This document shows, in pieces, positions 8,618-51,353 of a stretch of 64,000 nucleotides of DNA. The stretch is from NCBI GenBank assembly GCA_963774955.1, contig CAVZGV010000003.1, positions 320,771-384,770 of the forward strand, written 5' to 3'. This stretch comes from Candidatus Falkowbacteria bacterium (GTDB lineage: Bacteria; Patescibacteriota; Patescibacteriia; CAIXNZ01). How positions within the stretch are numbered: the stretch's first letter is position 1; every line of letters starts with the position of its first letter. The translations under genes were made by a program, and so were the position numbers. The notes under the pieces were generated by a model. The model was given only the letters and a program-made list of their open reading frames with translations, did not search any database and was not told where the DNA came from.

Positions 8618-8722
8618 GGCGAAAACGCCCTTTGTCATTCTGAGGAACCGAAGAATCTATGATGTCACAGATCCTTCGCTCCGCTCAGGATGACAGTGAT
8701 CCGACAAAGGGCGTTTTCGCCC
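8618..8722. mobile_element. MITE copy 1 of the GGGCGAAAACGCCC-TTTGTCAT family (~105 bp, terminal inverted repeats).
   Basis: Left end ggcgaaaacgccctttgtcattctgagg, right end gacaaagggcgttttcgcc, with an internal sub-palindrome. About 93% identical to the copy at 51249-51353. It lies 6 bp after the rdgB stop. Confidence 0.8.
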
Positions 8723-8734
8723 TCAAATAATATT

Positions 8735-9364
8735 ATGACCCTACTCCTCACCTCCGCCGGCATGAAGGTTAAGACTGAAATTATGAAAATTCTGCCTAAG
8801 CCGGCCGAGCAAATAAAATTAGCCCATATTATCACTGCTTCTAAATCAGAATCAGATACTTCTTATGTCCACAGAGATTCTGAAGCCATGAAATATGCCG
8901 GATTTCAGGTTGAGGAAATTGATATTGAAGGCCAAACTGAATCTGAACTCAGAGAATTACTGGCTGAAAAAGACATTGTTTATGTCCAAGGCGGTAATAC
9001 TTTTTATTTAATGAAAGCTGTCAGGGAAAGCGGGTTTGATAAGGTTGTTAATGAATTAATCAATCAGGGCAAGATTTATATAGGTGTTAGCGCCGGTACT
9101 ATCATCGCCGGCATTGATATTACTGTGGCCGGTTATGGCGGCGAGATTTGGGATAAGAATGAAGTCGGGTTAACGGATATGACAGGTATGAAGCTGGTTG
9201 ATTTTGCGATTTCACCGCATTTTAAACCTGAAGAATTGGACTTACTTAAAAAAATGCAGTCTGAAGTTGATTATAAGCTTCGAGCCCTAACTGATGACCA
9301 AGCGTTTTTAGTTAAAGATGGCGGAGTTAACTTGGTAGGTAACGGTAAGGAAATAAAAATATGA
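8735..9364 (+). CDS. pepE: Peptidase S51 (dipeptidase E / cyanophycinase-like).
   Basis: QGGNTFYL and GVSAGTIIAG are S51 hallmarks. The ORF's N-terminal extension overlaps the MITE, so the start is taken at MTLLLTSAG. Confidence 0.75.
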   Translation: MTLLLTSAGMKVKTEIMKILPKPAEQIKLAHIITASKSESDTSYVHRDSEAMKYAGFQVEEIDIEGQTESELRELLAEKDIVYVQGGNTFYLMKAVRESGFDKVVNELINQGKIYIGVSAGTIIAGIDITVAGYGGEIWDKNEVGLTDMTGMKLVDFAISPHFKPEELDLLKKMQSEVDYKLRALTDDQAFLVKDGGVNLVGNGKEIKI

Positions 9365-9567
9365 TTCAACCCGGCAAATATCGCCATTACAAAGGCAAAG
9401 AATATGAAGTAATTGGTTTAGCCAAGCACAGCGAGACTTTGGAGGATTTGGTTGTTTACAAGGCGTTATACGGTGAAGGACAAATGTGGGTGAGGCCGGT
9501 AAAGATGTTTGAAGAAAAGGTTATTGTTGATGGGGTAGAGGTGCCGAGGTTTGAATTTATTTCTTGA
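9361..9567 (+). CDS. DUF1653-like small protein.
   Basis: YRHYKGKEYEVIGLAKHSETLEDLVVYKALYG matches the DUF1653 pattern. Confidence 0.55.
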   Translation: MIQPGKYRHYKGKEYEVIGLAKHSETLEDLVVYKALYGEGQMWVRPVKMFEEKVIVDGVEVPRFEFIS

Positions 9568-10215
9568 CGTGGCTTGACGAAGCCTTGCTTCGTAAGTCAT
9601 TAAAATGTTATAAAAATGAAAACTAAAATAAGAAATATCCATCGTCCAATCCACATATTTGAACCTGGTGCCCAGTATTTTATTACGCTTTCCATATATC
9701 AAAAGAAAAAATCATTAAATACGGACGAAAAGAAACATGTAGTTCGGGAAAGTTTAATGAACGCAATCGAAAAATACGGTATTGTTTTAAATGCTTGGGT
9801 TATTCTGGAAAATCATTTTCATGTGTTAATTTCCGCTATAAGTCCCGAAGCTATTCCTCGATTTATAAAATTTATCAGTTCCAGAAGCTCAGTGATGCTA
9901 AACAAAATGAACAATACGCCCGGGGTAAAGAATTTTTATCAATATTGGGATAGGATAATAAGGGATGAGAATGATTTTTATACCAAAATTAATTATATCC
10001 ACTTTAACCCGGTTCATCATAGGTACTGCCAAGAGCCTGCTGAATATGCTTTTTCATCGTATAAAGAATACCTTGATGAATTTGGGGTGGAATGGCTGAA
10101 TGACTGCATAAATAATCATCCTTTGAATACCCATCGGTATTGAATGACACAACAAGGCTGTGTAAAGCCACGTTACGATGAAAATTAGCATCAGCAAGGC
10201 TGTGTTAAACTACGG
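9567..10215. mobile_element. RAYT unit: Y1 transposase gene bracketed by inverted REP-like hairpin repeats.
   Basis: Upstream acgtggcttgacgaagccttgcttcgtaagtcat; the reverse complement of downstream is acgtggctttacacagccttgttgtgtcat. A second downstream copy agcaaggctgtgtt lies at 10193-10215. Confidence 0.5.
9616..10143 (+). CDS. IS200-like Y1 transposase (REP-associated tyrosine transposase, RAYT-like).
   Basis: HxH motif in ENHFHVLIS, a C-terminal Tyr region (YIHFNPVHHRY) and ~175 aa size. Flanked by imperfect inverted repeats at 9567-9600 and 10145-10174. Confidence 0.65.
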   Translation: MKTKIRNIHRPIHIFEPGAQYFITLSIYQKKKSLNTDEKKHVVRESLMNAIEKYGIVLNAWVILENHFHVLISAISPEAIPRFIKFISSRSSVMLNKMNNTPGVKNFYQYWDRIIRDENDFYTKINYIHFNPVHHRYCQEPAEYAFSSYKEYLDEFGVEWLNDCINNHPLNTHRY

Positions 10216-10239
10216 AAAAGGGGTTTTATCGCGTTTTAT

Positions 10240-11202
10240 ATGGCGAATAATATAAGAGAAAAAAACAATCACGGCTGGCACTACATTGCCGATGTTGACT
10301 TGGGTGATTTTTTGACCTTGGCTGATGTTAGAGATACCTATTTGCAGAATTATTTGGGAAAAGGTTATACGGATGTTAAGTTGGAGCTGGTGAAAGGGAA
10401 AATCTATAAAGTTTATCTTTATCGTCCCGTTGAGCTCAAAGGTTTGAATAAAAATGATCCTCTTTTTATGGCCGTGATTTTACCGACAAAGATCAGTTTA
10501 TTGAAGTCTCAAATTAAAAATTTTCCTGACAAGAAAAAAGAAATTCAAAATGAAATTATTTTTTGGAAGATTGCTTTAAGAAATTATCGGCAGAAAAGAA
10601 AGCTATCCGAATGGGCAGCAGGTTTACCAGATAAATTGCGTTTTAAAATGCGGAACTGTAAATATCTGCCGAGTTTTAATGAAACCAGTAGAATCCCTTA
10701 TAAACAACGCGAATCATTTCAGGAAGAATTTTTTGATTATGAAATTTGGAATAGGGAATACATTAATGCTTTGGCCAAACAAATCGGCAATCATAAGATA
10801 GTCATGGAGGTTGGAGCAGGCTCTGGGCGGCTAAGTTACTTTTTAAGAAAAAAATTACCCAATAACCAAATTATCGCAATTGATATTAGTTTGAAAAACA
10901 AAGTAGCTGGTATTCCACTTATAAAAATGTCCATGAAACAGGCTTTACAGAAGTTTAAACCGGATATTTTAATTTGTTCCTGGCCTGACGCTTTTTTCTG
11001 GCAGGAAATTAAGCATAATACCAGCGCCAAGAAAATAATTTTAATCGGCGACAGTGAGGATACACCATTGGCTAGGGAAATAAAAGGCGAGTGGCAATGG
11101 CTGCCAATTAAGGGTTTTAAAGTAAGGGAATTTTTTGCAGCTAAAAAGGTTCAGACCAGCCGAGACAGCCTGGGTACCACAATTATTTATAAAAATAATT
11201 AA
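10240..11202 (+). CDS. Class I SAM-dependent methyltransferase-like protein with an N-terminal extension.
   Basis: VMEVGAGSGRLSYFL (motif I GxGxG) followed by IAIDIS (motif II). Confidence 0.55.
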   Translation: MANNIREKNNHGWHYIADVDLGDFLTLADVRDTYLQNYLGKGYTDVKLELVKGKIYKVYLYRPVELKGLNKNDPLFMAVILPTKISLLKSQIKNFPDKKKEIQNEIIFWKIALRNYRQKRKLSEWAAGLPDKLRFKMRNCKYLPSFNETSRIPYKQRESFQEEFFDYEIWNREYINALAKQIGNHKIVMEVGAGSGRLSYFLRKKLPNNQIIAIDISLKNKVAGIPLIKMSMKQALQKFKPDILICSWPDAFFWQEIKHNTSAKKIILIGDSEDTPLAREIKGEWQWLPIKGFKVREFFAAKKVQTSRDSLGTTIIYKNN

Positions 11203-11206
11203 ATCT

Positions 11207-11695
11207 ATGAGAAATAAAACTCAGGAATCAAATTTGGAAACTGCTGATTTTGCCGCCGGTTGTTTTTGGGGCGTGCAGTCAACTTTTGATAAATTAGCCG
11301 GAGTCAAAGAAACAACAGTCGGTTATGAAGGCGGACAAGTGGCTAATCCGACCTATGAACAGGTCAGTGATCACCAAACTGGTCATGCTGAGACAATCCG
11401 CATTAAGTATGATCCGAATATCATTTCATATACAACCTTGCTGGATACCTTTTGGAAAATACATAATCCGACAACCAAAGACCGTCAGGGACTCAATGTC
11501 GGTTCTAATTACCGTTCGGCTATTTTTTATCACAATCAAAAACAAAAAGAACTGGCGGAAAGAGCCAGGGAAGATTTATTAAAAAGAGGTGTTTATAAAA
11601 AAATTGTTACTGAGATTGCACCGGCTTCAGAGTTTTGGCCGGCTGAGGAATATCATCAGAAATATTATTTAAAAAATAAGGGTTTAGTTTGTTAA
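11207..11695 (+). CDS. msrA: Peptide-methionine (S)-S-oxide reductase MsrA.
   Basis: Active-site GCFWG and YHQKYY near the C-terminus. The ORF extends upstream to 11135; the Met at 11207 follows the previous stop. Confidence 0.85.
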   Translation: MRNKTQESNLETADFAAGCFWGVQSTFDKLAGVKETTVGYEGGQVANPTYEQVSDHQTGHAETIRIKYDPNIISYTTLLDTFWKIHNPTTKDRQGLNVGSNYRSAIFYHNQKQKELAERAREDLLKRGVYKKIVTEIAPASEFWPAEEYHQKYYLKNKGLVC

Positions 11696-12138
11696 TTATG
11701 AACAGAATTATAAATATGAAACGCGACGTCTCAATTTTAATTCCTTATAAAAAAGAAAATGGTGAGGTTTTGGTTTTCCTGGAACGCCGTTCCAAAACAG
11801 CCGAGCGGATTCCTGATTGGTTTGGTTTTTGGGGCGGGGGAATTGAAGCAGGAGAATCCTCGGAACAGGCTTTATTGCGTGAAATAAAAGAAGAATTGGA
11901 TTTTAAACCGGTCGGTTATCAACATTTTAAAGATTTTGAATTCGGGGTTTTAAAAAGCATTAAACATCTTTATATCTTAGAGGTTGACAAAAGTTTTGAA
12001 TCTAAGATAAAGTACAATGAAGCTCAATACGGACAGTGGTTTAATCAGCAACAAATTGAAACTGAAAAATTACTGATTGAAGACGACAAGATCGTTTTGA
12101 GAGAGTTCTTTAACTCGTTAAAAGGAGAAAATATATGA
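11689..12138 (+). CDS. NUDIX hydrolase.
   Basis: Nudix box GGGIEAGESSEQALLREIKEELDF (GX5EX7REUXEEXGU). Confidence 0.8.
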   Translation: MLIMNRIINMKRDVSILIPYKKENGEVLVFLERRSKTAERIPDWFGFWGGGIEAGESSEQALLREIKEELDFKPVGYQHFKDFEFGVLKSIKHLYILEVDKSFESKIKYNEAQYGQWFNQQQIETEKLLIEDDKIVLREFFNSLKGENI

Positions 12139-12713: not shown

Positions 12714-12723
12714 AAAAATAAGT

Positions 12724-12752: not shown

Positions 12753-12760
12753 TGTGCCCG

Positions 12761-13039: not shown

Positions 13040-13096
13040 TATTTTTCCCTCCTGAAGATGAGTATAAATAAATTTATGAATTTTTGCAAATAAATA

Positions 13097-14373: not shown

Positions 14374-14402
14374 ATTTTAGCACATTTTAGTGGTTTTGTC
14401 AA
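14374..14402 (-). promoter_or_regulatory. Sigma70-type promoter (TTGACA-17-TAAAAT) on the minus strand.
   Basis: Reverse complement reads gtgTTGACAaaaccactaaaatgtgcTAAAATtaaaag, upstream of the 241-aa gene. Confidence 0.6.
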
Positions 14403-14409
14403 CACGTTC

Positions 14410-14522
14410 GCCAAAAAGAAAAGGGAGCTCCGTTATGGGAGCTCCCTTGGTGTTAAGGCAAATAGATAGGGCTGTAGATCGGCGTGTAGTTTTGATTGGC
14501 CACGCTGAGCGTCAGTCCCTTG
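14410..14522. repeat. Direct repeat copy A (~113 bp): duplicated gene 3' end plus terminator hairpin.
   Basis: ~90% identical to 15145-15258. Contains hairpin gggagctcc-gttat-gggagctccc and a 31-aa stub ORF (14453-14548, minus) ending ..GLTLSVANQNYTPIYSPIYLP, the same C-terminus as the lipoprotein 15188-16015. The stub start overlaps the upstream gene's stop (TAATG). Confidence 0.85.
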
Positions 14523-14547
14523 ATATTAGGCTCAGACTTGGAGACCA

Positions 14548-15021: not shown

Positions 15022-15144
15022 GTCAATTCCTCCATTAGGTTATGTTGTACCAATGAACTAAGCCCTTTATGAAATAACTTGGCAGAATTTTTTTAAAAAA
15101 CTATCTTTATAATATTAGATGTTTAATTATTTGTCAATATGTTA

Positions 15145-15258
15145 GCCAAAAAGAAAAGGGAGCTCCGTGTGGGGAGCTCCCTTGGTTTTAAGGCAAATAG
15201 ATTGGGCTGTAGATCGGCGTGTAGTTTTGATTGGTCACGCTAAGAGTTAGTCCCTTGG
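15145..15258. repeat. Direct repeat copy B: the authentic 3' end of the lipoprotein gene plus its terminator.
   Basis: gccaaaaagaaaagggagctccgtgtggggagctcccttgg..agtcccttgg aligns with copy A. Confidence 0.85.
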
Positions 15259-16015
15259 TATCACTGGTTTTCCAGTGGTTCAGGTTGAGCGGATCAAACG
15301 CTGTTACCCGGATGGCCAGTGGTTGGTTGTCCGGAAAATCGTAGTCCAGGAAGGCGATGTCCTCGTAGTTTTGCAGGGCGATCCAGAAAGTACAGAGCTG
15401 GAAGCTGGCTTCATAGCCGCCGCCATTCCTGAGTTTCAGAGCGTAAACCTCAACTCGGATCGGATCCGAAGACAGGTTTTCGCAGTAAAACGAGTTGTTG
15501 CTCTGGTCCAGCGGATTGTTTTCCGCATAACGGCCGTCAAACTGACAAGCCGCGCCATTGATGATGCCCACCGGAATCTGATAAGTGTTTCTGGTGCTGG
15601 TGTTGATGATTTCAAACTCACCCTCGACGACCATGCCCTGTCCTTGGAAATCCGGTTCGGTGCCGTGGACATTGGCATAGTAGACTGAAACAATGCCCCG
15701 CCAGATTTTGAATTCCAGCATATCGCCTTCTTCCAGGTCGCGCGAATAGACACTGTTGGTGTTATAAGGCAGGGTGATCAGCTCACGGACAAGGTAGGTG
15801 TTGGTGGTTTTGTTGAACAGATCCACCTTGACTACCACGTCATTGTTGTTGGTGAACGAAATCAGACCGTTTTCCAGGGTGAAGTCAAAGTCGACTCCGG
15901 CCAGACTGGCGTAGGCGTAGTGGTAAGTCGGGGGAGTCCCGGGCGCTTCCTCTTTATAGGGTGCGCAGTTCAGACAGAAGAACCCGAGGCAGATGCTGAT
16001 AATAAGTTGCTTCAT
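15188..16015 (-). CDS. Secreted protein/lipoprotein, hypothetical (GC-rich island).
   Basis: The ORF runs 15188..16087; the real start is the Met at 16015 (MKQLIISICLGFFCLNC signal/lipobox-like) with a GGAGG SD, 10 bp after the upstream gene. It shares an ANVHG motif with its upstream neighbour. Confidence 0.6.
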   Translation of the reverse strand: MKQLIISICLGFFCLNCAPYKEEAPGTPPTYHYAYASLAGVDFDFTLENGLISFTNNNDVVVKVDLFNKTTNTYLVRELITLPYNTNSVYSRDLEEGDMLEFKIWRGIVSVYYANVHGTEPDFQGQGMVVEGEFEIINTSTRNTYQIPVGIINGAACQFDGRYAENNPLDQSNNSFYCENLSSDPIRVEVYALKLRNGGGYEASFQLCTFWIALQNYEDIAFLDYDFPDNQPLAIRVTAFDPLNLNHWKTSDTKGLTLSVTNQNYTPIYSPIYLP

Positions 16016-26842: not shown

Positions 26843-28033
26843 ATGAATATATTCTCCAATGATTATCTGGCTAATTTTTCCAATAAAAAACTGGCCACGG
26901 GCGGGCCGGCCAGGTTTGCCAAGGAATTTTCTGATTTTGCCGTAAAGCAGCGACATAACTGGAATGGCTTGTGTATAATAGCAAAAAGTGGAGCGCAAAA
27001 TCGTTTATCCAAGAAGCAATTTGGGCGCAAGACTTATTGGCAGTTTGTCATGAAGGGCAGAATATACAAACAGATCACAAAAGCCAAGTCTAAAATTGAT
27101 GTTTTACAAAAAACTCAGCCCTTAATTGATAAAATCTCAGCTTTGTTGAAGAAGACTTCTGCGGATATTGTGTTTTTAAATGGTTTTTCCGTGGCTAACT
27201 GGATAATTATGCAGGCTGCATTTAGTGTTAATAAGAAGATTGTTATTCAACACGCAGGTATTTGGACTAAGGAAGTTAATATGTATCGGCATTTTTTTTC
27301 TGCCTGGGGCCGGAGGCTGGTTTTACAAATGGAAAAGGATGTTGTTGCTTGTGTTGATCATCAGATATTTTTAAATGAATACAGCCGGGATGTCTATAGT
27401 AAGATAGTTAAAAAAGTATCCAAATCAAAAAGTCTGGTTATTCCCTTGCCCTTTTTAGGCCAGCAGTCTAGGCAAGTAAAATTTAAACCGGTAAATCCTC
27501 AGCAGGCTTTAAAAATCGGCATTGTTGCCCGTTGGGATAGGATAAAAAATCAAGAAGCGGTTTTGGCCCTGGCCAAAGAAATAAAAAAACAAAATTTGAA
27601 CTGGCAGATATATTCTGTTACAGTAATTCCAGAAACTAAGAAATTCCTAGATTTTAAAAAACAGTATCGTAGTTACATCAAGGTTATTCCGCCCATGCCG
27701 TATCAGGAGATTCCGAAATTTAATCGGATGATGGATCTGATGATTTTACCTTCTCATTTCGATGTTTCCCCTAATGTAGTCATGGAAGCCGCCAATGAAG
27801 GCCTGGCCACTTTAATTTCACCTTACGTCGGCTGGGTCAATGAGTATCGTCGTAGTGGCTGTTCAAGCTTGATTGTTGATTTTGCCAAGCCGGAAGCAGT
27901 CATTAAGGAGATAAAAAGGTTAAGCAATCCGCAATTAAGAAAGAAGATAAAAAATATGTTTGTAAATATAAGGAAAAAACATGATAAAAACAAAATATTT
28001 GCTGAATACTTAAAGCTCTTTAAAACCTTGTAG
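26843..28033 (+). CDS. Glycosyltransferase (GT-B, family 1/4-like), hypothetical.
   Basis: C-terminal half IGIVARWDRIKNQEAVLALAKE.. is GT4-like. Confidence 0.45.
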   Translation: MNIFSNDYLANFSNKKLATGGPARFAKEFSDFAVKQRHNWNGLCIIAKSGAQNRLSKKQFGRKTYWQFVMKGRIYKQITKAKSKIDVLQKTQPLIDKISALLKKTSADIVFLNGFSVANWIIMQAAFSVNKKIVIQHAGIWTKEVNMYRHFFSAWGRRLVLQMEKDVVACVDHQIFLNEYSRDVYSKIVKKVSKSKSLVIPLPFLGQQSRQVKFKPVNPQQALKIGIVARWDRIKNQEAVLALAKEIKKQNLNWQIYSVTVIPETKKFLDFKKQYRSYIKVIPPMPYQEIPKFNRMMDLMILPSHFDVSPNVVMEAANEGLATLISPYVGWVNEYRRSGCSSLIVDFAKPEAVIKEIKRLSNPQLRKKIKNMFVNIRKKHDKNKIFAEYLKLFKTL

Positions 28034-28058
28034 TTAATTATTAATTGATTTTTGCTTT

Positions 28059-29159
28059 ATGAGAATTGCTCAATTAGTTTATAATCTTCACCGCGTCTTT
28101 TCAGCGTCTAATAACGCTATTTACGGCCATGTAGGATATTTATGCGATCGTTTGGCTGATAGCGGACATGAGGTGACTCTGTTTGCGTCCGGTAATTCAG
28201 AAACTAGGGCCAAACTTGAATCTGTTTATCGCACTTCTTTTAATTTAGCCAATAAGCTGTCGGAACGGGAAAGGCGGCATTATAATCATTTATTAATTTC
28301 TAAATGTTATAATCAAGCCAGAAATTTTGATCTCATCCATACTCATTTTACTTTGCTTAGCTCGTATTATAGCGGTTTGGTGGATATCCCGACTTTGATT
28401 TCGATCCACAGCCCGATTATCAAAGAGATTAAGCCTTTTTTAAAGGCGTTCAGAAATAATTATTATGTGTCTTTTTCCTTGGCCCAACGCAAACAAATGC
28501 CGGATTTGAACTGGTTTGCCAACATTTATCATGGTGTGGACACTAAAAAATTTAGTTTTAATCCTAAACCCAAAGATTATTTTTTGTATTTAGGCAGAAT
28601 AACCGAGGAAAAAGGCGTGCATTTGGCTATTGCGGCTGCCAAAGCCGCTGAAGTCCCATTGATTATTGCTGGTGGTAGTTATTCCAGCGAAAGTTATTGG
28701 CACGAGGAAATCGAAAAAAATATTGATGGCACTAATATTATGTATGTTGGCGAAGCCAACCTGGAACAAAAAATAAAATATTTAAGAAATGCCAAGGCTG
28801 TTCTTTTCCCGACGCAGTATAACGAAGTTTTTGGTCTGGTCATGATTGAAGCTATGGCTTGCGGTACCCCTGTGATTGCCTGGCGAAACGGCTCAGTGCC
28901 AGAAGTAATTAAACATCGAAAAAACGGATATATTGTCAAAAGTGTTGATGATATGGTTAAAGCAATCAAGATGATTGATAAAATCAGCAGGCAGGAAACT
29001 AGAAAACGAGCCGAGGATTTTTTCAGTATTGAAAAAATGGTGGCCGGCTATGAAAAAGTTTACGCCAGGATTATAGAGGATAATTACAAAAATAAAAATC
29101 ATCAAAATAATAATGAGATTCTGCCAGTCTCGCAAAATATTCCTTTAATTAATGAATAA
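28059..29159 (+). CDS. Glycosyltransferase family 4.
   Basis: GRITEEKGVHLAIAAAKAAEVPLIIAGG and EVFGLVMIEAMACGTPVIAW match the EX7E motif region of GT4. Confidence 0.75.
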   Translation: MRIAQLVYNLHRVFSASNNAIYGHVGYLCDRLADSGHEVTLFASGNSETRAKLESVYRTSFNLANKLSERERRHYNHLLISKCYNQARNFDLIHTHFTLLSSYYSGLVDIPTLISIHSPIIKEIKPFLKAFRNNYYVSFSLAQRKQMPDLNWFANIYHGVDTKKFSFNPKPKDYFLYLGRITEEKGVHLAIAAAKAAEVPLIIAGGSYSSESYWHEEIEKNIDGTNIMYVGEANLEQKIKYLRNAKAVLFPTQYNEVFGLVMIEAMACGTPVIAWRNGSVPEVIKHRKNGYIVKSVDDMVKAIKMIDKISRQETRKRAEDFFSIEKMVAGYEKVYARIIEDNYKNKNHQNNNEILPVSQNIPLINE

Positions 29160-29607
29160 TATGTCAAAAAATAATTTATCTCATCAAGAAAAATCCGTTG
29201 CTGGCGGGAAAATTCATCGTTGCTCAGTCTGCGGTTATATTTACAAAGATGGCGAAGCTCCGCTAGAATGTCCGATTTGCCAAAATAAAGGGACTTTTGA
29301 TGAAGTTAAACCAGAAGCAGTTAATTATGAATTTTTTAAAGATTGTTGGACTCGCCAGGTTAAATGGATGAATGCCACTAAATATCAGGATGAGATTATG
29401 CTTAATCCTGACGAAAGTGTTTTGAAAATGCTGGCTGAAGCTGAAGGGAAATTTTTACTTGACGGTAAACAGGCCTACTGCCCGTGCCGCATTTTAACCG
29501 GCAATGAACTGGCTGACCGCAAAATCATTTGCCCGTGTTATTTTTACATGGGGGAAATTGAATTGCAGGGTAGGTGCCATTGTAGTTTATATTTGAAGAA
29601 AAAATAG
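29152..29607 (+). CDS. Rubredoxin-like zinc ribbon fused to a ferredoxin:thioredoxin reductase catalytic-subunit (FtrB) domain.
   Basis: CSVCGY..(x14)..CPICQ rubredoxin knuckles, then CPCR...CPCYFYM...CHC, the CPC-x-CPC-x-CHC arrangement of the FTR catalytic chain. Confidence 0.7.
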   Translation: MNNMSKNNLSHQEKSVAGGKIHRCSVCGYIYKDGEAPLECPICQNKGTFDEVKPEAVNYEFFKDCWTRQVKWMNATKYQDEIMLNPDESVLKMLAEAEGKFLLDGKQAYCPCRILTGNELADRKIICPCYFYMGEIELQGRCHCSLYLKKK

Positions 29608-29714
29608 GGCGAAAACGCCCGATCTTGTCACCCTGAGCATAGTCGAATGGGTGACGCCGTCGGAGTATGGTTCGACTAGGCTCACCATGACAACAAGAGC
29701 GGGCGTTTTCGCCC
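29608..29714. mobile_element. MITE copy 2 (same TIR family, different internal sequence).
   Basis: gggcgaaaacgcccgatcttgtcaccctgagcatagtcgaa ... ttcgactaggctcaccatgacaacaagagcgggcgttttcgccc; starts immediately after the stop codon at 29607. Confidence 0.8.
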
Positions 29715-29741
29715 AAATTAATAAAATAATTGAAATGAAAT

Positions 29742-30176
29742 ATGGAACGAAATAGTGAGGATAAAAAAGATAAGAAGAATCGAGTTTTAAAATTTACTAA
29801 AATTTTTTCTATAATTTTAATAATTTGGGGGAGTATTTTAGCGATTTTATCGGTTTTACTGGTGATTTTTTATATATTTTTACCGGAAAGTTTAGTTGCC
29901 GCTGGATCTAATAAGGAAGAAATAATTGATCTTTTAATCTTTGGAATCCCCGGGGCTATATATGGCTTAGTCGGAGGAATTGGTTTGTATAAATTAAAAA
30001 AATGGGCATTTTATTTTGTTTGCGGCTTGGGCGTCTATTATTTATTGATGGGTATATTTTATTTTTTGATTACATTGGATATTTCTAATATTGGAATTGG
30101 AGATGTTGTATTAGGTTTATGTTCAATTTATTTAATAAGAAACAGACAATATTTTTTTGAAAATGAAAAAGTATAA
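29742..30176 (+). CDS. Small membrane protein, hypothetical.
   Basis: Four predicted TM helices. Confidence 0.5.
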   Translation: MERNSEDKKDKKNRVLKFTKIFSIILIIWGSILAILSVLLVIFYIFLPESLVAAGSNKEEIIDLLIFGIPGAIYGLVGGIGLYKLKKWAFYFVCGLGVYYLLMGIFYFLITLDISNIGIGDVVLGLCSIYLIRNRQYFFENEKV

Positions 30177-33842: not shown

Positions 33843-34763
33843 ATGTTAGTTACTACCAAACAAATTTTAGCCAAAGCCAATAAAGGTCATTACGCTGTCG
33901 GCGCCTTTAATACCAATAATTTGGAAATTACCCAGGCGATTATTGAAGCTGCCGAAGAGCTTAAAGCTCCGGTAATAATTCAGACGTCTGAAGGTGCGAT
34001 TAGTTATGCGGGTATCGATTATTTATTGGCCATAAATAAAGTGGCCAGTCAGGCTAAAGTTCCTGTTGCTATTCACCTGGATCATGGCAAGGATTTGAAA
34101 TTAATAAAAAAATGTATTGATAGCGGTTACACTTCAGTTATGTATGATGGCTCATCTTTGCCGGAAAAAGAAAATATCGCCAATACTAAAAAAGTTGTTA
34201 CTTGGGCGCATAAAAAGGGCGTTAGCGTGGAAGCTGAAATAGGGGCTTTGGCCGGGATTGAAGATTTTGTTTCTGTATCGGCTAAAGACGCGGCTCTTAC
34301 CAGTCCGGAACAGGCTTTAAAATTTGTTAAGGCAACCAAATGTGATAGTTTAGCTATTGCCATCGGGACTGCTCACGGAGCTTTTAAATTTAAAAAAGCT
34401 TGTCATTTGGATTTTGCACGTTTGAAAAGGATCAAAGCCAAAGTGAAAATGCCTTTAGTTTTGCATGGTGCTTCGGGGGTGCCGAGTGAATTGGTAAAAA
34501 TGGCCAATAAATATGGGGCTAAATTAGCTGATACTAAAGGTGTACCAGACAGCCAAATTAAGCAGGCGATTAAATATGGCATTAATAAAATTAATACTGA
34601 TACTGACTTGCGTATTGCTTTTACTGCTGCTTTGAGAAAAACTTTAAAGGATAATCCGGCCGAGTTTGACCCGCGTAAGATTTTAGGACCTGCTAGAGAT
34701 TTAATGAAAAAGGTGGTGATGCAGAGGATACGGGTTTTTGGGTCGGTTAATAAGGCGAAATAG
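33843..34763 (+). CDS. fba: Fructose-bisphosphate aldolase, class II.
   Basis: ..GAFNTNNLEITQAIIEAAEE..VIIQTSEGA.., ..HLDHG.., ..LVLHGASG.. Confidence 0.85.
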   Translation: MLVTTKQILAKANKGHYAVGAFNTNNLEITQAIIEAAEELKAPVIIQTSEGAISYAGIDYLLAINKVASQAKVPVAIHLDHGKDLKLIKKCIDSGYTSVMYDGSSLPEKENIANTKKVVTWAHKKGVSVEAEIGALAGIEDFVSVSAKDAALTSPEQALKFVKATKCDSLAIAIGTAHGAFKFKKACHLDFARLKRIKAKVKMPLVLHGASGVPSELVKMANKYGAKLADTKGVPDSQIKQAIKYGINKINTDTDLRIAFTAALRKTLKDNPAEFDPRKILGPARDLMKKVVMQRIRVFGSVNKAK

Positions 34764-34866
34764 GCAAAAATGCCCTTTGTCTGTCGTTGTCATTCAGAAC
34801 AGTACAAAGAATCCAGGACTACATAGATTCCACGCTTCGCTCTGAATGACAAAGAGCATTTTTGCT
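34763..34866. mobile_element. MITE copy 3 (diverged TIR ggcaaaaatgccctttgtc).
   Basis: ggcaaaaatgccctttgtctgtcgttgtcattcagaac ... ctctgaatgacaaagagcatttttgc; begins at the fba stop. Confidence 0.7.
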
Positions 34867-34914
34867 CGCATCATATTACTTATTACTTATTACCAAATTA
34901 ACCAATATAACCCT

Positions 34915-38563: not shown

Positions 38564-38617
38564 GGTTTTATGAAGTTGTATTAGGTTGTATGAGGTTATA
38601 TAAGGTTGCACTTGAAT

Positions 38618-38725
38618 GGGCGAAAACGCCCTTTGTCATGCCGACCGAAGCGGAGGCATCCCTAAGTTATTAAGGGATTTCTCGACTACGCTTGAAATGA
38701 CAATAGACAATGGGCGTTTTCGCCC
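38618..38725. mobile_element. MITE copy 4.
   Basis: gggcgaaaacgccctttgtcatgccgaccgaagcggagg ... gaaatgacaatagacaatgggcgttttcgccc. Confidence 0.8.
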
Positions 38726-38745
38726 GATAATAAATATTATCAATT

Positions 38746-45295: not shown

Positions 45296-46418
45296 GAAAA
45301 CGCTCTTTGTCATACCGGGTAAATGGTACCCAAACTGGTTGGTGAAAAGACAAAATTTCTGTTAAGGTTAGATTAAAATTGATACTTAATATTAAACTGG
45401 TTCAATATTATGAAAAAAAACTTGTCCAGATTGCTCCTCTAATAATGTAATTTTTTATGGCCAAAATGATTGCGGACGGCAAAGATTCAAGTGCGGGAAG
45501 TGCAATCGACTGTTTATTTTCCGCAATGCAAAGAATAAATTGAACCGCCAACTTAAATGGTTTAAATTATGGATAGCCGAAGGATATTCAGTCAGGCAAA
45601 TTTCGGGAATTAGCCACCACAGCAGGAAAACAATTAAGGGAATAATCAGTTATTGGCTCGCAAAATTACCGAGCCCTTTAAACGTACAAACCGGAATAAA
45701 ATATCTGCTTTTTGATGGTACATATTTCCACCGCATGAATTGCTTAATGCTGGCAATGAATAATGCCAATGGCCAAATCATCACAAATAGGTATTTAAGG
45801 CGTGAAAATTACTTTGCCGCCCTTGAGCTGTTCAAGGAGCTGTCAGATAAAGGAATCAAGCCTACAGCCATTACAATTGACGGTAATACTAGCGTAATTA
45901 GAGCCTTAAAGGACGCATGGCCGAATATCGTAATACAGCGCTGTATCGTTCATATCCAGAGGCAGGGATTATTTTGGTTAAGAATGCGTCCTAAACTGGA
46001 GCCATCGATACAATTACGCAAGATATTACTGGCGGTAACAAACATTAACAATTATCCGGAAAAACATAAATTTATTTCAGATTTTCATAAGTGGGAAAGA
46101 AAATTCGGCAAAGCGGTTTCAAGACTCGACTGTAACCACAAAGTCTTTAGTGATTTGCAAAGAACTAGAAGCTTAGTAATTCATGCCTTGCCCGACATGT
46201 TCCATTATTTAGATAATCCGAATATCGCCAAATCAACGAATAAACTTGAAGGATATTTTTCTCGTTTAAAAAGATTGTATCGCCAGCATTCAGGATTAAG
46301 CAAAGATAACAGAAACAATTACTTTAGCTGGTATATTCATTTCAAAAATCATTAATTCACCAACCAGGTTGGACCCCTTATACCCGAAATGACAAAAGAC
46401 AAAGGGCGTTTTCGCTCC
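45296..46418. mobile_element. IS1595-family-like insertion sequence (~1.1 kb); presumed autonomous parent of the MITE family.
   Basis: Imperfect ~45-bp TIRs: left gaaaacgctctttgtcataccgggtaaatggtacccaaactggttgg; the reverse complement of the right end is gagcgaaaacgccctttgtcttttgtcatttcggg..ccaacctggttgg. The ends match the MITE termini. Confidence 0.75.
45410..46355 (+). CDS. IS1595-like transposase (N-terminal zinc ribbon + DDE domain), with a frame break at an A8 run.
   Basis: The zinc ribbon CPDCSSNNVIFYGQNDCGRQRFKCGKCNRLF (45423-45515) is in frame with the ORF 45540..46355 but lacks an ATG. The ATG at 45410 (MKK) is one frame off across tgAAAAAAAAc. C-terminal ..TNKLEGYFSRLKRLYRQHSGLSKDNRNNYFSWYIHFKN is IS1595-like. 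Confidence 0.65.
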
Positions 46419-46428: not shown

Positions 46429-47583
46429 ATGCCCAAAGAAAAAGGACAACAAGATGCAGAAGCGCAGGACTTGGCTATGGCCAGGCGGGTTTTGGGTCAG
46501 GCTAAGGAATTGGATTTGACTGAACAGGAGAAAACAGAGCTAATGGAATTGATTAGTCAGGCCAAGGAAAAAGAAAATGCTAATAATTTGGCCGCAGCCA
46601 TAAAATTATACGGGCAGGCTAGGGACTTTATAAAAAATATTAAGGAGAAAAGTAATTACGATAAATTTGAGTGCTTGCAGTCCTGGGAAGCTCATAAGGG
46701 CGTTGCCTGGTCAGTTTTGTTAAGTTCTGACCAAAAGAAATTAATTTCCTGCGGCAGTGATAAGGCTGTCAGAGTTTGGGATAGAAAAACCGGTCAATGC
46801 GATAAAAGTTTAGAAATGCCGGAAGGTCATTGGGGTATTGTCAGGAGATTAAGACCAAGCAAAGACGGTGAACATTTTTATTCTGTCAGTAATGATGGTT
46901 CCTGTAAAATGTGGGATCAAAAAAACTGGCAGTGTGAAAAAACTTTTGAGCCAAACGAAGAAAATCAGCCAGTGTGCACGGACGTTATTGAATTGGATGA
47001 TAATATTTTAATTTCAACCCATCTTTCTCTTAAAATAAAATTATGGTCTAAAAAAAGCGAAGCTAATTCGGTTAGAGGATTGTTTGGAGTTAACGAGGTC
47101 TATGGAGGTATTAAAATAGGAGAAGATTTACTGGCATTATCAACAGATAGGGGGGTGGTAATTTATGACTTAGAAGCTCGTGGAGTTCCAAATATTTTAA
47201 ATAATGTTGCCTCGCAGGAAACAGCTATCTTAGAAAGTGCTGATAAAAAATATTTATTTGTTGGCGCTCCTATAATTAAACCCAAGGGTGAGGGCAATTT
47301 TGATTTGCAGATTTGGGATAAAGACGGCTGGGATCTAATTGCTTCTTTGCCCGGTCACGAAGATATTATCAGAAGTATTGTTCAAACCCGAGATGGAAAA
47401 CATTTGATTACCTGCAGCGATGACAAAACAGTTAAAGTCTGGGATATTGAACAAGAAAAATGCATAAAAACTTTTGACATGGAAGATCATGAACCCAGAT
47501 GTGTTATTGAAGCTGAAAATGGAGACATTATAACTACCGGCAGGGACGGAAAAATAAAGATTTGGGGAATAAAAGAAAAATAA
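46429..47583 (+). CDS. Family member 1: conserved N-terminal module + WD40 beta-propeller.
   Basis: N-terminus ..AQDLAMARRVLGQAKELDLTEQEKTELMELISQAKE..; WD40 repeats (..FECLQSWEAHKGVAWSV.., ..CGSDKAVRVWD.., ..DDKTVKVWD..). Confidence 0.8.
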   Translation: MPKEKGQQDAEAQDLAMARRVLGQAKELDLTEQEKTELMELISQAKEKENANNLAAAIKLYGQARDFIKNIKEKSNYDKFECLQSWEAHKGVAWSVLLSSDQKKLISCGSDKAVRVWDRKTGQCDKSLEMPEGHWGIVRRLRPSKDGEHFYSVSNDGSCKMWDQKNWQCEKTFEPNEENQPVCTDVIELDDNILISTHLSLKIKLWSKKSEANSVRGLFGVNEVYGGIKIGEDLLALSTDRGVVIYDLEARGVPNILNNVASQETAILESADKKYLFVGAPIIKPKGEGNFDLQIWDKDGWDLIASLPGHEDIIRSIVQTRDGKHLITCSDDKTVKVWDIEQEKCIKTFDMEDHEPRCVIEAENGDIITTGRDGKIKIWGIKEK

Positions 47584-47584
47584 T

Positions 47585-48820
47585 ATGAAAAAAAATATTG
47601 AACAACCCAAAGATGAGGTGCAGGAACTGGCCATGGCCAGGCAGGCTTTGGATAAGGTTAAGGAACTGGATTTGACTCCTGAGGAAAAAGAAAAAGTGAT
47701 GGCTATGATTGATAAGGCCAAGGAGCATGAACAGAACAAGGAGCTGTCAAAAGCCCTGAATGTATATAACGAACTTCTGCGGTTATTGAAAAACAAAGAA
47801 AATATCGGCAATTTAGAAAAGTTAGTTAAATATGGTGACTTTGAGATTTTGTATTCGCAGGCGCAGGTATTATTTGCCTTGGAGGAAGAGATTGCCAAAG
47901 TTAAGAATAGTGTTGATCCGCTGGTCCATTATTCAGAATTGGTAATCAGGCAAATACTTATCGATAAAGGGCTTAAAGTTGAAGCCGGAAATGTAATAAA
48001 ATTAAACGTTAGTCATCTTGACATAGCAACTTTGCCGGACTTAAAATCCTTAGAAAAACTGGAAGATTTAAACTGTTCGTATAATAAGTTATCTGTATTG
48101 CCAGAGTTAAAGACGTTATCAAAAATTAAAATAATAAATTGTTCTTGTAATCAGTTATCTGAATTACCGGATTTAAGCGCCTTAAAAAATCTTGATACTT
48201 TGTTTTGTGACTCAAATCATCTCACTGTAATGCAGGATCTAAGCGCTTTAATTAATCTTAAACGATTAAATTTAAGTATTAATTATTTTAGTGGTTTACC
48301 TGACTTGAGCCACTTGACTAAACTGGAATTTTTGGACTGTTCAAGGAATGAATTAATTTATTTGCCCGATCTTAAAGCCTTAAAAAAACTGGAACATTTA
48401 GAATGTAATAACTGCGAATTGGTAGGCTTGCCGGATTTTGAAGATTTAAAAAAAATAAGAATATTAAGCTGCAGTCACAATCTTTTGTCTTTCATCCCTG
48501 GCCTTAGTAAATTGGAAGATATTGAAGATTTGGATTGTTCAAATAATCTGATATTAAATCTTGACGACGTTAGTTCCTTGGAAACGCTTGTTAAGCTACA
48601 GATTGAAAATAATAAAATAACTAGTTTGCCTGATTTATCCAGGCTGGATCAACTGGAAGTTTTAAATTGTTCTCGAAATAAATTATCCATCTTGCCCAGA
48701 GATTTAGTCGGGTTAGAAGATCTTAAAGAAGTTTGGCTGGGAGGCTGTATAGTGAATAGGACTGAAACTGAGGAAGAATTTGAGGAAATTTTACCGGCAG
48801 GATGTGAAATATATTGGTAG
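47585..48820 (+). CDS. Family member 2: conserved N-terminal module + leucine-rich repeat domain.
   Basis: ..VQELAMARQALDKVKELDLTPEEKEKVMAMIDKAKE..; ~13 LRRs of type LxxLxxLxxLxCSxNxLSxLPDL. Confidence 0.8.
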   Translation: MKKNIEQPKDEVQELAMARQALDKVKELDLTPEEKEKVMAMIDKAKEHEQNKELSKALNVYNELLRLLKNKENIGNLEKLVKYGDFEILYSQAQVLFALEEEIAKVKNSVDPLVHYSELVIRQILIDKGLKVEAGNVIKLNVSHLDIATLPDLKSLEKLEDLNCSYNKLSVLPELKTLSKIKIINCSCNQLSELPDLSALKNLDTLFCDSNHLTVMQDLSALINLKRLNLSINYFSGLPDLSHLTKLEFLDCSRNELIYLPDLKALKKLEHLECNNCELVGLPDFEDLKKIRILSCSHNLLSFIPGLSKLEDIEDLDCSNNLILNLDDVSSLETLVKLQIENNKITSLPDLSRLDQLEVLNCSRNKLSILPRDLVGLEDLKEVWLGGCIVNRTETEEEFEEILPAGCEIYW

Positions 48821-48890
48821 TTTGGAAAAAAGTACGAGCCGCGGAGCGGCATTCCGCTGCGTGGAAAAGTCCGAATTTATAATAATTTTT

Positions 48891-50261
48891 ATGCCCAAAG
48901 AAAAAATACAAGCAGATAAAATTGAAGCTCAGGAACTGGCCATGGCCAGGCGGGTTTTGGGTACTGTTAAGGAATTGCCGATGTCTGAGGCTGAAAAGGC
49001 CAAGCTTATGGAATTGATTGATCAGGCAAAGCAATTGGAAACAGAAAATAAGTTGCATCAGGCCATTGTGGTTTATAATCAGGCAGCCGGTCTGATGCGG
49101 AAAATTAAAGCCAGAAATGAAAATCAGGTTAGAACCAATCCCAAGGAATCGTGGGACTGGCAGGTCGGAGAAAAATTATTGTTGGATGACGAAGGATTTA
49201 TTGGCCCAAAAGGCTTTGCTCAATTTGATACCGCGGTATTTACTACGGACGGAGAAACTGTTTTGTGTGAAGTAAGCGACCAATTCATCAATTGGCTGGC
49301 AAAGAATGGTAAAACAGCTGCTGAAACAGTCTTTAAAAGTAAACAACTTGTAGCCAGTAATGATGGGCAGCATTTTGCCGCATTAGTTTTGAATACTGCA
49401 GACGGCGATGAAGACTTTTATGAGGTCGTCACAGATAAAGGCAAAGGGATATATAAATCTTCTGAAGCTTGCAAAAAATTGATGTTCAGTCCTGACGGAG
49501 AAAAATTAGCAGTCTTTGTGAAGGATGAGGTTTCCAGCCCCAGTGACCAGTATTATAAAATTGTTGAAAACGGCCAATTGCTTTTTCCCTGGATTTATGG
49601 CGATCCTTCAGACCCCAAAGATTATCGCTTGAAAGATATAATCTATAGTCCTGATAGTCAGAAACGAGCAGCTATCATTCATGGGCTTGGCAGTGACTTC
49701 AGTGATGCAAATGAGGTTTCAGAGAGTATTGTAGTAGATGGCGATAAAAAGTGGCAACCACAAGCAGCGACTTTGAAATGGCCGGTTTATAGCCCTGATG
49801 GTGAAAAACTGGCAGTAGTAGACCGTGAAGGTCAGATTATGGTTAATGAAAAATATATTGAAATTCTTTCCGGGAAAAAAGCCCTGAGTCCGCCGGTTTT
49901 TAGCCCCAATGGAGAAAAGATCGCTTATGTTGTTAGCCTGGACCCGAGAAAAACAAGTTTTACTTTAGCTGAGGATGATAAAATCAAATGGGAACATTCC
50001 ATGTTTAAAGAAATACGCGATTTTGTTTATAGTGATGACGGACAAAGCATTGCAGCTGTGGTAATAAATCCAAGCGAGGAAGCAAACGAAATTAAAATTG
50101 CGGTCAACGGTATTAATATTGATGACGATGAATATATTAATGTTAAACATTTAACCTTCAGTCCTGATGGACAAAAGATTATGTATGTGGGACAAAAAGA
50201 CGACGGTAAATATTTTCGGATTGTCAAAGATGTCAGTGATTATGCAAAAATTCAGACATAA
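48891..50261 (+). CDS. Family member 3: conserved N-terminal module + PD40/TolB-like beta-propeller.
   Basis: ..AQELAMARRVLGTVKELPMSEAEKAKLMELIDQAKQ..; six (F/Y)SPDG(E/Q)K(L/I)A blades. The ORF extends upstream to 48780; start taken at MPKEKIQ. Confidence 0.75.
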   Translation: MPKEKIQADKIEAQELAMARRVLGTVKELPMSEAEKAKLMELIDQAKQLETENKLHQAIVVYNQAAGLMRKIKARNENQVRTNPKESWDWQVGEKLLLDDEGFIGPKGFAQFDTAVFTTDGETVLCEVSDQFINWLAKNGKTAAETVFKSKQLVASNDGQHFAALVLNTADGDEDFYEVVTDKGKGIYKSSEACKKLMFSPDGEKLAVFVKDEVSSPSDQYYKIVENGQLLFPWIYGDPSDPKDYRLKDIIYSPDSQKRAAIIHGLGSDFSDANEVSESIVVDGDKKWQPQAATLKWPVYSPDGEKLAVVDREGQIMVNEKYIEILSGKKALSPPVFSPNGEKIAYVVSLDPRKTSFTLAEDDKIKWEHSMFKEIRDFVYSDDGQSIAAVVINPSEEANEIKIAVNGINIDDDEYINVKHLTFSPDGQKIMYVGQKDDGKYFRIVKDVSDYAKIQT

Positions 50262-50266
50262 ATATA

Positions 50267-51241
50267 TTGGATAAATTTATGCGCCAAGAAAAAATACAAT
50301 CAAAAAGTGAACAGCAACAGGCACTGGCCATGGCCAGGCGGGTTTTGGGTCAGGCTAAGGAAATGAAATTGAATTCTGACCAGCATAAAAAAATGATGGG
50401 AATGATAGACAAAGCTCGAGGTTTTGAAGTCACAGGGGAGACACAAAAGGCTTTGCACGTATATTTGGCTTTGAAAACTTATTTAGAAGAAATTAAGAAT
50501 GGTCCCAAATTTACTTTCAGCGGAGTAGCTGATAGAACAAAAGATAATCATGAGGTGCTGTTATTTTTTGATGAAGAATTGGAAAAATCTAAGGCTTTTT
50601 ATGAGAATGAAGGGGTTGATTGGGTGGAATTCCCTGAGCAAATTATAATTACCCAGAGTCAAGAAGCCGAGATGAAACGTTGTATCAGAGAGTTTAGTTT
50701 TAATAAAATTATGATCATACCTGCTGGCTTGGCTGTTGATGCTGATGAAATGAATATACTTCATAGTTTAATGGGCAGACTATACCCGCCGACTAAATAT
50801 AATCCCAATTATACAAAATATGCAGGTACTAAAATTTTAGAAAAAAGGCAAAATTTGCGAATTGTTTTATATCGCAATCAGAAAGGTTTGGATGACTTGT
50901 ATCTGCAAACCAGGGGCAAATCTGCCGAAGAATTAATGGCCCCAGGTGGCTTAATGGATACTTTAGGGTTGGAAGGACTTTCTGAAGCTGAATTTTTAGT
51001 GCTACAACATCAGCATTTTTTGGATTTTCCTGCAGATTATATGTATATGGGAGATGAGGTTATGCTTTTAGGAAGTAATTTTATGAAAACTGACGAGGGG
51101 CATGAAATGGCAGTCAGCGCTTATTGGGATCTTTCAGGCACTCATTCACCCAAAGGATTAGTATTTGATGGCCGGCCTAAAAATATGCTTGGTTCCGGTG
51201 TCGGATGTCCGTTGGTTAAGACTTTTGAAATTAAGGATTAA
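50267..51241 (+). CDS. Family member 4: conserved N-terminal module + uncharacterised alpha/beta C-terminal domain.
   Basis: ..QQALAMARRVLGQAKEMKLNSDQHKKMMGMIDKAR..; the likely start is the Met at 50279 (MRQEKIQ). Confidence 0.7.
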   Translation: MDKFMRQEKIQSKSEQQQALAMARRVLGQAKEMKLNSDQHKKMMGMIDKARGFEVTGETQKALHVYLALKTYLEEIKNGPKFTFSGVADRTKDNHEVLLFFDEELEKSKAFYENEGVDWVEFPEQIIITQSQEAEMKRCIREFSFNKIMIIPAGLAVDADEMNILHSLMGRLYPPTKYNPNYTKYAGTKILEKRQNLRIVLYRNQKGLDDLYLQTRGKSAEELMAPGGLMDTLGLEGLSEAEFLVLQHQHFLDFPADYMYMGDEVMLLGSNFMKTDEGHEMAVSAYWDLSGTHSPKGLVFDGRPKNMLGSGVGCPLVKTFEIKD

Positions 51242-51248
51242 GGCTGAA

Positions 51249-51353
51249 GGGCGAAAACGCCCTTTGTCATTCTGAGGAACCGAAGAATCTGTGAGACACA
51301 GATCCTTCGCTACGCTCAGGATGACAGTGAACCGACAAAGGGCGTTTTCGCCC
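51249..51353. mobile_element. MITE copy 6 (~93% identical to copy 1).
   Basis: gggcgaaaacgccctttgtcattctgaggaaccgaagaatctgtgagacacagatccttcgctacgctcaggatgacagtgaaccgacaaagggcgttttcgccc. Confidence 0.85.

Follow-up and report, generated by a model that had tools for sequence, protein, structure and literature searches.

Short hairpin-ended, REPIN-like elements in Candidatus Falkowbacteria and related bacteria, and an IS256-superfamily insertion sequence lodged in one of them

A REPIN is an inverted doublet of REP sequences (repetitive extragenic palindromes) and forms a hairpin together with its spacer (Bertels and Rainey 2011, PMC3116915), and the insertion sequences (IS) described as targeting REP sequences come from five families, IS256 among them (Tobes and Pareja 2006, PMC1525189). 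Here we analyse a family of short palindromic elements with hairpin termini, together with an IS that seems to share those termini, in a 64-kb stretch of a Candidatus Falkowbacteria contig (the window). The elements are best filed with the REPINs, and the IS adds a new REP-targeting member to the IS256 superfamily, one whose 5-bp target duplication is unusual and whose transposase gene has a conserved offset at a run of eight adenines (A8) near its start. Our favoured reading, held with moderate confidence, is that REPIN-like elements that make no target-site duplication, probably moved by an HUH-type enzyme, have been secondarily parasitised by a hairpin-targeting IS. We found no description in the literature searched of REP or REPIN families, or of families of miniature transposable elements with inverted repeats (MITEs), in bacteria of the candidate phyla radiation (CPR).

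Like the REPIN and REP-RAYT systems (RAYT, REP-associated tyrosine transposase; PMC3116915; Nunvar et al. 2010, PMC2817692; Ton-Hoang et al. 2012, PMC3333891), the family has conserved, inverted, palindromic ends around a variable, hairpin-forming spacer. It further resembles them in its length of ~70–110 nt, its extragenic location, the lack of a duplication, its compensatory changes and decayed copies, the presence of a RAYT gene in the genome, copies better conserved than the genes beside them, and turnover between related genomes. It differs from REPINs in its conserved unit, a perfect mini-hairpin of 5-bp stem and 4-nt loop at the extreme ends; in its interiors, which form no loose spacer but discrete classes with a structure of their own (among them the three-hairpin class and the double hairpin with CTTTAG/CTAAAG); and in its hosts, which are CPR/Parcubacteria. 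REPINs reach tens to hundreds of copies per genome; the window holds five elements in 64 kb.

The 14-mer GGGCGAAAACGCCC, with at most one mismatch, occurs nine times in the window against 0.01 expected. Eight occurrences form four inverted pairs (8617–8722, 29607–29714, 38618–38725, and 51249–51353), and the ninth (46404–46417) lies in the right flank of the IS. A fifth pair, that of copy 3 (34762–34867), has variant ends, AGGCAAAAATGCCC and GAGCATTTTTGCTC, whose changes are compensatory within each mini-hairpin. The five elements measure 105–108 bp each, with the bounds GGGCGAAAACGCCC...GGGCGTTTTCGCCC, at a density of about one pair per 13 kb:

8617–8722, plus strand: element copy 1, class a, subfamily ATTCT/ATCCT (14-mer scan, fold, profile)
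29607–29714, strand unassigned: element copy 2, class a2, GTCACCC...GGGTGAC type (14-mer scan, fold, profile)
34762–34867, minus strand: element copy 3, class a, flipped, ends AGGCAAAAATGCCC / GAGCATTTTTGCTC, between fba and pfkB
38618–38725, plus strand: element copy 4, class a, subfamily ATGCC/ATTTC (14-mer scan)
51249–51353, plus strand: element copy 5, class a, with 93.6% identity to copy 1 (14-mer scan, profile)

On either strand GGGCG-AAAA-CGCCC comes first and GGGCG-TTTT-CGCCC last, so that the ends are an inverted pair of 14-nt mini-hairpins. A family profile run with nhmmer recovered the five copies and two half-remnants (45296–45324 and 46380–46416), detected no further member in the window, and gave copy 3 the opposite orientation to the rest. 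The interiors of copies 1 and 5 are 93.6% identical and those of the remaining copies 55–72%. Every copy folds as a long hairpin (z = –4 to –11). At Rfam gathering thresholds nothing was found in the whole window, and permissive searches, made with copies 1 and 2, turned up no more than sub-threshold matches to generic hairpins of miRNA-like kind. The family as reported in the first-pass annotation is real: the coordinates given there are correct to within 1 bp, and its figure of ~93% identity between the first and last copies agrees with ours for the interiors.

When one genome per species was scanned for the two termini together, 10 loci were recovered, nine in metagenome-assembled genomes (MAGs) of Candidatus Uhrbacteria, Parcubacteria, and Falkowbacteria and the tenth on a contig of a MAG titled “uncultured Gammaproteobacteria”. 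The same scan gave 44 further loci in metagenomes and 0 matches in viral contigs. Apart from that one contig, every element came from a contig of CPR type. Together the scans yielded 56 distinct elements, whose exact common 14-mer ends are a consequence of the search by both termini. The elements are ~90–126 bp long, non-coding, extragenic, and palindromic, with variable interiors that always form hairpins. The 14-mers are always paired, A-loop first and T-loop last, and in the ~130 kb examined they were never found single or inside a coding region.

Four classes of interior are found between these ends. Class a reads TTTGTCAT...ATGACA(N5–9)GACAAA, class a2 reads GTCACCCTGAG..., class b consists of two hairpins with CTTTAG and CTAAAG loops and stems that vary between copies, and class c is GTAGAGACATGGCATGCCATGTCTCTAC; classes b and c have no TTTGTCAT inside the identical termini. 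The class a interior comprises three stem-loops, namely H1 and H3, with covarying 5-bp AT-NNN stems, and a central hairpin between them, plus an extra GACA bulge on one side. Pairing within each arm (AT-NNN/NNN-AT) is Watson–Crick at 240 of 250 positions across eight different stem sequences, compared with 167/250 when the same bases are paired between arms, and among the 25 class a elements listed, 24 have a different stem in each arm. A fold with an outer stem and three hairpins lies within 2–10 kcal/mol of the long hairpin.

Target-site duplications, the mapping of which had been proposed as a check on mobility, gave no signal for the short elements: direct repeats of 4–9 bp were not in excess at the ends of 53 of them. 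The L001 element (loci outside the window carry L numbers) has an 8-bp direct repeat at its ends, which is not significant (P ~0.09) and matches at 6/8 positions in the L047 ortholog. Among the flanks listed, no base is common to the positions adjoining the element ends. A second small hairpin repeat, GTCCGCCTTCGCTAAAGCT(T/A)CGGCGGAC, was seen in spacers beside elements (L038 ~950–1010, L047, L054 ~2340–2370, and L007 5200–5240), and the element at L001 3033–3158 encloses a nested CTAAAG mini-hairpin. These two observations suggest the existence of very small nested hairpin modules.

Orthologous sites were compared between related genomes. The window is syntenic, at ~65–80% nucleotide identity, with Uhrbacteria and Falkowbacteria contigs (L001/L038, L041, L042, L045, L047, L054, L057, L072, L077, and L006). 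The site after the TP_methylase gene, occupied by copy 4 in the window, holds an element with the same ends in 9/9 contigs, with differing interior or orientation:

Window and L045: same subfamily
L054: window subfamily, flipped
L042 and L040: other class a subfamilies
L006 and L072: class a2
L038 and L047: class c, ends slightly altered

The fba–pfkB site holds an element in the window and in L038, whose copy bears a nested CTAAAG mini-hairpin; L042, L047, and L054 have none there. The copy-2 site has an ortholog with decayed termini in L054 and a class a copy in L077. Interiors are 88–91% identical to copies with different flanks in other contigs; the adjoining coding DNA is 75–78% identical. 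Presence/absence polymorphism between related genomes had been named among the signs that would tell a mobile family from a conserved structural RNA; polymorphism in presence and in content does exist. Together, the different interiors, flips, decay, and absences at shared sites and the close copies with different flanks show turnover, decay, and spread, which is not the picture expected of an RNA gene that is static and conserved. The strong persistence of elements in position still allows for a role in the host. Within the syntenic region, ~3.4 kb with four genes (window 26843–30176) is exchanged for one small open reading frame (ORF) in the Uhrbacteria relative (L001/L038 5855–6320), and the replaced segment adjoins an element in each genome.

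The first-pass annotation took the same termini to bound a ~1.1-kb IS of the IS1595 type and the short elements to be its MITE derivatives. GGGCG-type sequences do bracket the IS; they lie outside it, and the left one is degenerate (GTTGAAAACGCTC). The features are as follows:

45296–45316, plus strand: left half-remnant of the IS host element, GTTGAAAACGCTCTTTGTCATACC, ending with the 5′ strand of stem H1
45317–46385, plus strand: IS proper, 1069 bp, IS256 superfamily (IS1249-like), imperfect ~30-nt terminal inverted repeats GGGTAAATGGTACCCAAACTGGTTGGTGAA / TTCACCAACCAGGTTGGACCCCTTATACCC
45410–46355, plus strand: transposase gene, with an ATG followed by an A8 run (45413–45420) and the main frame from 45414
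46386–46417, plus strand: right half-remnant of the IS host element, GAAATGACAAAAGACAAAGGGCGTTTTCGCTC, 93% identical over 30 nt to the right end of copy 4

When rebuilt across the A8 run, the transposase matched Pfam Transposase_mut (PF00872) with 30.6 bits against a cut-off of 21. Among NCBIfam models it matched IS1249 (1.5e-45) and a zinc-binding variant of IS256 (5.5e-37), with subgroup scores below the curated cut-offs (156 vs. 300 and 127.7 vs. 150). The IS1595 model NF033547 gave E = 0.006 over 40 residues only, and the IS1595 assignment fails against these values. Sequence places the transposase in the IS256/Mutator superfamily, with an N-terminal zinc ribbon; the superfamily is firm and the IS1249-like subgroup is not. 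At the A8 run the frame of the ATG departs by one base from that of the main ORF; with one A fewer the zinc ribbon would begin MKKTCPDC. The IS of loci L011–L030, which represent two other IS species of the clade, have the same A8 offset a short way upstream of where the transposase was called to start. This conservation suggests programmed transcriptional slippage or frameshifting, and not a pseudogene.

A protein search found 770 relatives of the transposase, many on IS-sized contigs. At the DNA level we compared L011–L030 (two IS species, 55–58% amino-acid identity), L031–L036 (81–94% nucleotide identity), and L083–L092 (89% nucleotide identity). The related copies (46 contigs) all end GGGTA...TACCC, and their similarity to the window covers exactly 45317–46385, from GGGTAAATGG to CCTTATACCC; sequence beyond these limits differs from contig to contig. 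Because related copies share the GGGTA...TACCC ends and have differing flanks, the IS is inserted in one element; it is unrelated to the elements and not their parent. Relatives as close as 81–94% in nucleotides and as distant as 55–58% in amino acids agree on these ends, and the shared termini do not belong to the IS.

The flanks of the IS point to a precise target. Of 47 distinct flanks, 45 fit ATTNCGAG / NNAATGAC; read outward they are ATT(C/G/T)NGAG... or NNAATGACA..., the two sides of TGTC[ATTNC]GAG. Duplications of 5 bp accompany consistent flanks in L012 (ATTTC), L020 (ATTGC), L013 (GAAAT), L033 (TGAAT), and L035 (AGAAT), and ATTGC is duplicated at the IS in L085 and L087–L089. In L035 the IS has inserted cleanly into a host element that is complete and retains its own termini. 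The target is the base of stems H1/H3, and the 5-bp duplication corresponds exactly to the 5′ strand of one of these stems. The flank motif, the duplications, and the L035 insertion show that this IS clade targets GTCAT-type hairpins. It inserts at TGTC[ATTNC]GAG, at the base of H1 or H3, and duplicates the 5-nt stem strand.

Terminal inverted repeats in the IS256 family are ~20–40 bp long, and the duplication made by classical IS256 is 8–9 bp. Other REP-targeting IS (IS1397 and ISKpn1 of IS3; IS621, ISPpu9, and ISPpu10 of IS110; ISRm22 of IS4; ISRm5 of IS256; PMC1525189) likewise have a fixed insertion point inside a dispersed palindromic repeat, and there too the repeat halves flank the IS and imitate extended terminal repeats. 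The present IS differs from them in belonging to the zinc-ribbon, IS1249-like branch of the IS256 superfamily with a length of only 1069 bp, in a 5-bp duplication that is one strand of a 5-bp stem (TGTC[ATTNC]GAG), and in the conserved A8 run, a putative frameshift site, where the gene for its transposase begins.

In the window the flanks of the IS (left ...TTTGTCATACC, right GAAATGACAAAAGACAAAGGGCG...) match the two outer ends of a copy-4-like element. The element’s ends seem to bound the IS because the IS sits inside one element. The pre-insertion state was not recovered from the syntenic locus L006, where gene order differs after cvpA. Pairing of left and right flanks in metagenome contigs is unreliable, since the same flank is joined to different partners and contigs are probably chimeric through the IS; we left outer–outer and interior–interior configurations there uninterpreted. 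Two related IS copies in inverted orientation surround a single hairpin interior in L021 (1–3575), and in L092 IS copies are separated by just one 45-nt hairpin unit. On the sequence of these two loci, arrays of hairpin units can apparently collect several IS copies.

A candidate mobiliser of the short elements is encoded nearby:

9554–9602, plus strand: RAYT inverted repeat, upstream arm, 49 nt, with GGCTTGACGAAGCC / ACGAAGC-CTT-GCTTCGT hairpins
9616–10143, plus strand: RAYT gene, candidate mobiliser (NF047646, 102 bits vs. cut-off 80; PDB 4ER8, TnpArep, 9.4e-13)
10138–10186, plus strand: RAYT inverted repeat, downstream arm; second partial copy at 10192–10214

The favoured mechanism is that the elements would spread as single-stranded hairpin DNA handled by an HUH/Y1 enzyme of the RAYT type, for which this gene is a candidate only; recombination between copies through their shared ends may contribute to the exchange. 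Dependence on hairpins, absence of a duplication, and HUH mobilisation, which we infer here, are shared with the palindrome-associated transposable elements (PATEs) derived from IS200/IS605. The hairpins at IS200/IS605 ends have the same orientation on one strand and insertion occurs 3′ of a fixed tetra- or pentanucleotide, whereas here the ends are inverted and no common base adjoins the element.

Several observations weigh against the favoured reading. The window RAYT and a 57%-identical homolog in L081 are bracketed by an inverted repeat of their own (CGTGGCTTGACGAAGCCTTG...) and not by GGGCGAAAACGCCC; the mobiliser is not assigned to the window RAYT for this reason. In ~480 kb this repeat is not dispersed and stands only beside RAYT genes, so the REPIN hallmark of a RAYT flanked by the same dispersed REP is missing here, a difference from REPIN systems proper. 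No clean empty site was found among the orthologous loci; where the element is absent, the intergenic sequence differs too. The presence of an element at the same gene boundary in nine contigs could mean conserved function combined with sequence exchange. The IS host in the window lacks its central ~50 nt and has no duplication, an “outer–outer” state that requires a secondary deletion or could be an assembly join. Its possible origins are an IS-mediated adjacent deletion into the second preferred site of the same element, recombination between two IS copies, or such a join.

The RAYT flanking repeat has the form CGTGGCTT(G/T)AC..AGCCTTG, and its hairpin ACGAAGC-CTT-GCTTCGT covaries with ACACAGC-CTT-GTTGTGT. 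It is not the sequence found at the element termini. The L081 homolog has the same flanking repeat in a different gene context; in the window the RAYT directly follows a DUF1653-like small ORF. Only one other RAYT-like ORF (L007) is present among 411 kb of element-bearing loci.

The position of the elements relative to genes bears on a different explanation. Neighbours of the window elements are rdgB (Ham1), pepE (peptidase S51), a rubredoxin/FTR gene, a class II aldolase gene (fba), a PfkB kinase gene, a TP_methylase gene (RsmI-like), CvpA, and WD40 paralogs. Four of the five copies start 0–7 nt past the upstream stop codon or overlap it, bearing out the earlier observation that most lie directly after stops. 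Copy 1 begins 4 nt past the rdgB stop and ends 12 nt ahead of the pepE ATG (8735); the TAG stop of the rubredoxin–FTR gene overlaps the first G of copy 2; an upstream TAG stop overlaps the first base(s) of copy 3; copy 4 lies 54 nt past the TP_methylase stop; and copy 5 lies 7 nt past a stop and 11 nt ahead of the ATG of a WD40 paralog. Downstream start codons are 11–27 nt from four elements and from the IS host remnant, and ~47 nt from copy 3. Spurious N-terminal extensions had also been predicted, correctly: the longest ORFs of pepE, pfkB, and the small downstream gene start inside elements.

Between the stop codon and copy 4 lies a periodic spacer:

38564–38617, plus strand: C-poor spacer with 10-nt period, (TGAGGTTGTA)n

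Other C-poor spacers in the window are at 51228–51248 and 34868–34914 (minus strand), and spacers with a 7- or 10-nt period (e.g., TGAGGTTGTA, TGAGATA, and TAATTGG) were seen at many loci, including L002, L006, L010, L040, L046, L055, L068, and L072. One flank is C-poor (at most one C per 30 nt) in 29 of 51 elements, compared with a background of 4.5% of 30-mers. Where a gene end is visible, the C-poor flank follows the stop of the gene reading toward the element, and it is often periodic. The idea that these spacers place stops in all three frames was rejected, as the window spacer has stops in only two.

Such an arrangement could be explained if the elements were primarily modules that the host selects at gene boundaries (a bidirectional insulator of transcription or translation, a terminator, or an outward promoter) and that stay at fixed sites, with recombination or gene conversion between copies, and not transposition, homogenising or exchanging them. 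We regard this reading as unlikely. It would account for the element at one gene boundary in nine contigs, for the compensatory changes that preserve the mini-hairpins of copy 3, and for the C-poor periodic spacers on the gene side of 29/51 elements. Class a ends consist of a mini-hairpin followed inward by TTTGTC, which a simple scan flags as terminator-like. ATGACA or CCGACA lies 16–17 nt from the element edge, with A/T-rich flanks that give –10-like hexamers (38704–38731 and 34846–34874), and no ribosome-binding site is evident at the close start codons downstream of the window elements. Going by these sequence features, the elements might act as terminators or promoters. Against the reading, canonical terminators with a long stem and T-tract are found elsewhere in the genome (37664–37693 and 14419–14450), whereas classes b and c have no T-run after the mini-hairpin and in the window no T-tract follows the long hairpin on the coding strand. 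Orientation flips between genomes, decayed copies, absences, and near-identical copies at unrelated loci in different genomes also argue against it, and structure alone would need no invariant 14-mer.

A related reading, which we consider quite improbable, is that the 14-nt hairpin pairs are fixed “sockets” at Parcubacteria gene boundaries. Hairpin modules would be swapped or inverted in them by a dedicated HUH-type or other recombination system and would serve as compact insulators that stop entering transcription, supply an outward –35 box, or both.

That the elements are small structured RNA genes with a cloverleaf-like fold is very unlikely. Covariation of the H1/H3 stems and stable folding would suit such genes, but single-stranded DNA hairpins would covary equally. 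No Rfam family was found, with generic sub-threshold hairpin matches only. The design is symmetric between the strands, each of which has a single wobble and a single mismatch; orientation relative to genes is not kept; and the same ends enclose several unrelated interiors.

Still less probable is the MITE model, in which the elements are internally deleted, non-autonomous derivatives of the IS, moved in trans by its DDE transposase. The family does resemble MITEs (Correia elements of Neisseria, RUP, ERIC, and Nezha) in being ~100 bp, non-coding, intergenic, and bounded by terminal inverted repeats, and in that it can form hairpins in RNA and may carry promoter or terminator signals. It differs from them in making no duplication, in having no parent IS with the same termini, and in terminal repeats that are themselves hairpins. 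The bracketing of the window IS by GGGCG...TTTGTCAT and ATGACAAA...CGCCC fits the model, as would the direct repeat of the L001 element. Related IS copies, in contrast, end GGGTA...TACCC with unrelated flanks, and the IS-end sequence is absent from the elements. The IS duplicates 5 bp and the elements nothing (for the L001 repeat P is ~0.09, and its L047 ortholog agrees at 6/8 positions). Classes b and c share the termini yet lack TTTGTCAT. The interpretation of an IS1595 parent with MITE offspring should be replaced.

The least probable explanation is that the 14-mer is a DNA uptake signal or other protein-binding genomic signal, comparable to the inverted pairs of DNA uptake sequences after genes in Neisseria: CPR bacteria commonly encode competence machinery, and the 14-mer is invariant across divergent CPR lineages and paired just after genes, but in ~130 kb it is never single or in a coding region, its density is low (~1 pair per 13 kb), and it always belongs to a complete ~100-nt palindromic unit.

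Two other sets of repeats were observed in the window. The paralogs that form a run at 46429–56088 are alike in a conserved 5′ region of ~130 nt (starts near 46443, 47599, 48908, 50296, 51382, and 55017) and differ in their bodies, which include WD40 propellers, 66-nt LRR-like repeats (48031–48670), and 87-nt repeats (55312–56000). Both the IS-bearing element and copy 5 lie between members of this array. A 132-nt stretch is duplicated at 14395–14526 and 15130–15261 with 90% identity; it takes in the 3′ ends of two genes on the minus strand along with their canonical terminator, which reads AAGGGAGCTCC...GGAGCTCCCTT and, on the minus strand, continues into a T-run. These genes are among the few on the minus strand in a window that is otherwise almost entirely plus-strand.

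For genome analysis, the method lesson is that an IS inside a palindromic repeat imitates an IS with long terminal repeats and “MITE derivatives”. The elements also lead to systematic annotation errors, in the form of false N-terminal extensions and small ORFs read through hairpins. A hairpin-targeting IS with an exact target offers a tractable case for the recognition of a structured or palindromic target by a DDE transposase. If the socket reading were true, streamlined genomes would have a cassette-like system for their intergenic regulatory DNA, with modules that include the three-stem-loop and CTTTAG/CTAAAG types, and this system would have its own specialised parasite, an IS that recognises the module stem. 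CPR/Patescibacteria genomes are regarded as streamlined and repeat-poor, and a conserved REPIN-like family that crosses lineages and whose invariant end is easy to recognise would mark genome dynamics, horizontal exchange, and assembly errors in these bacteria.

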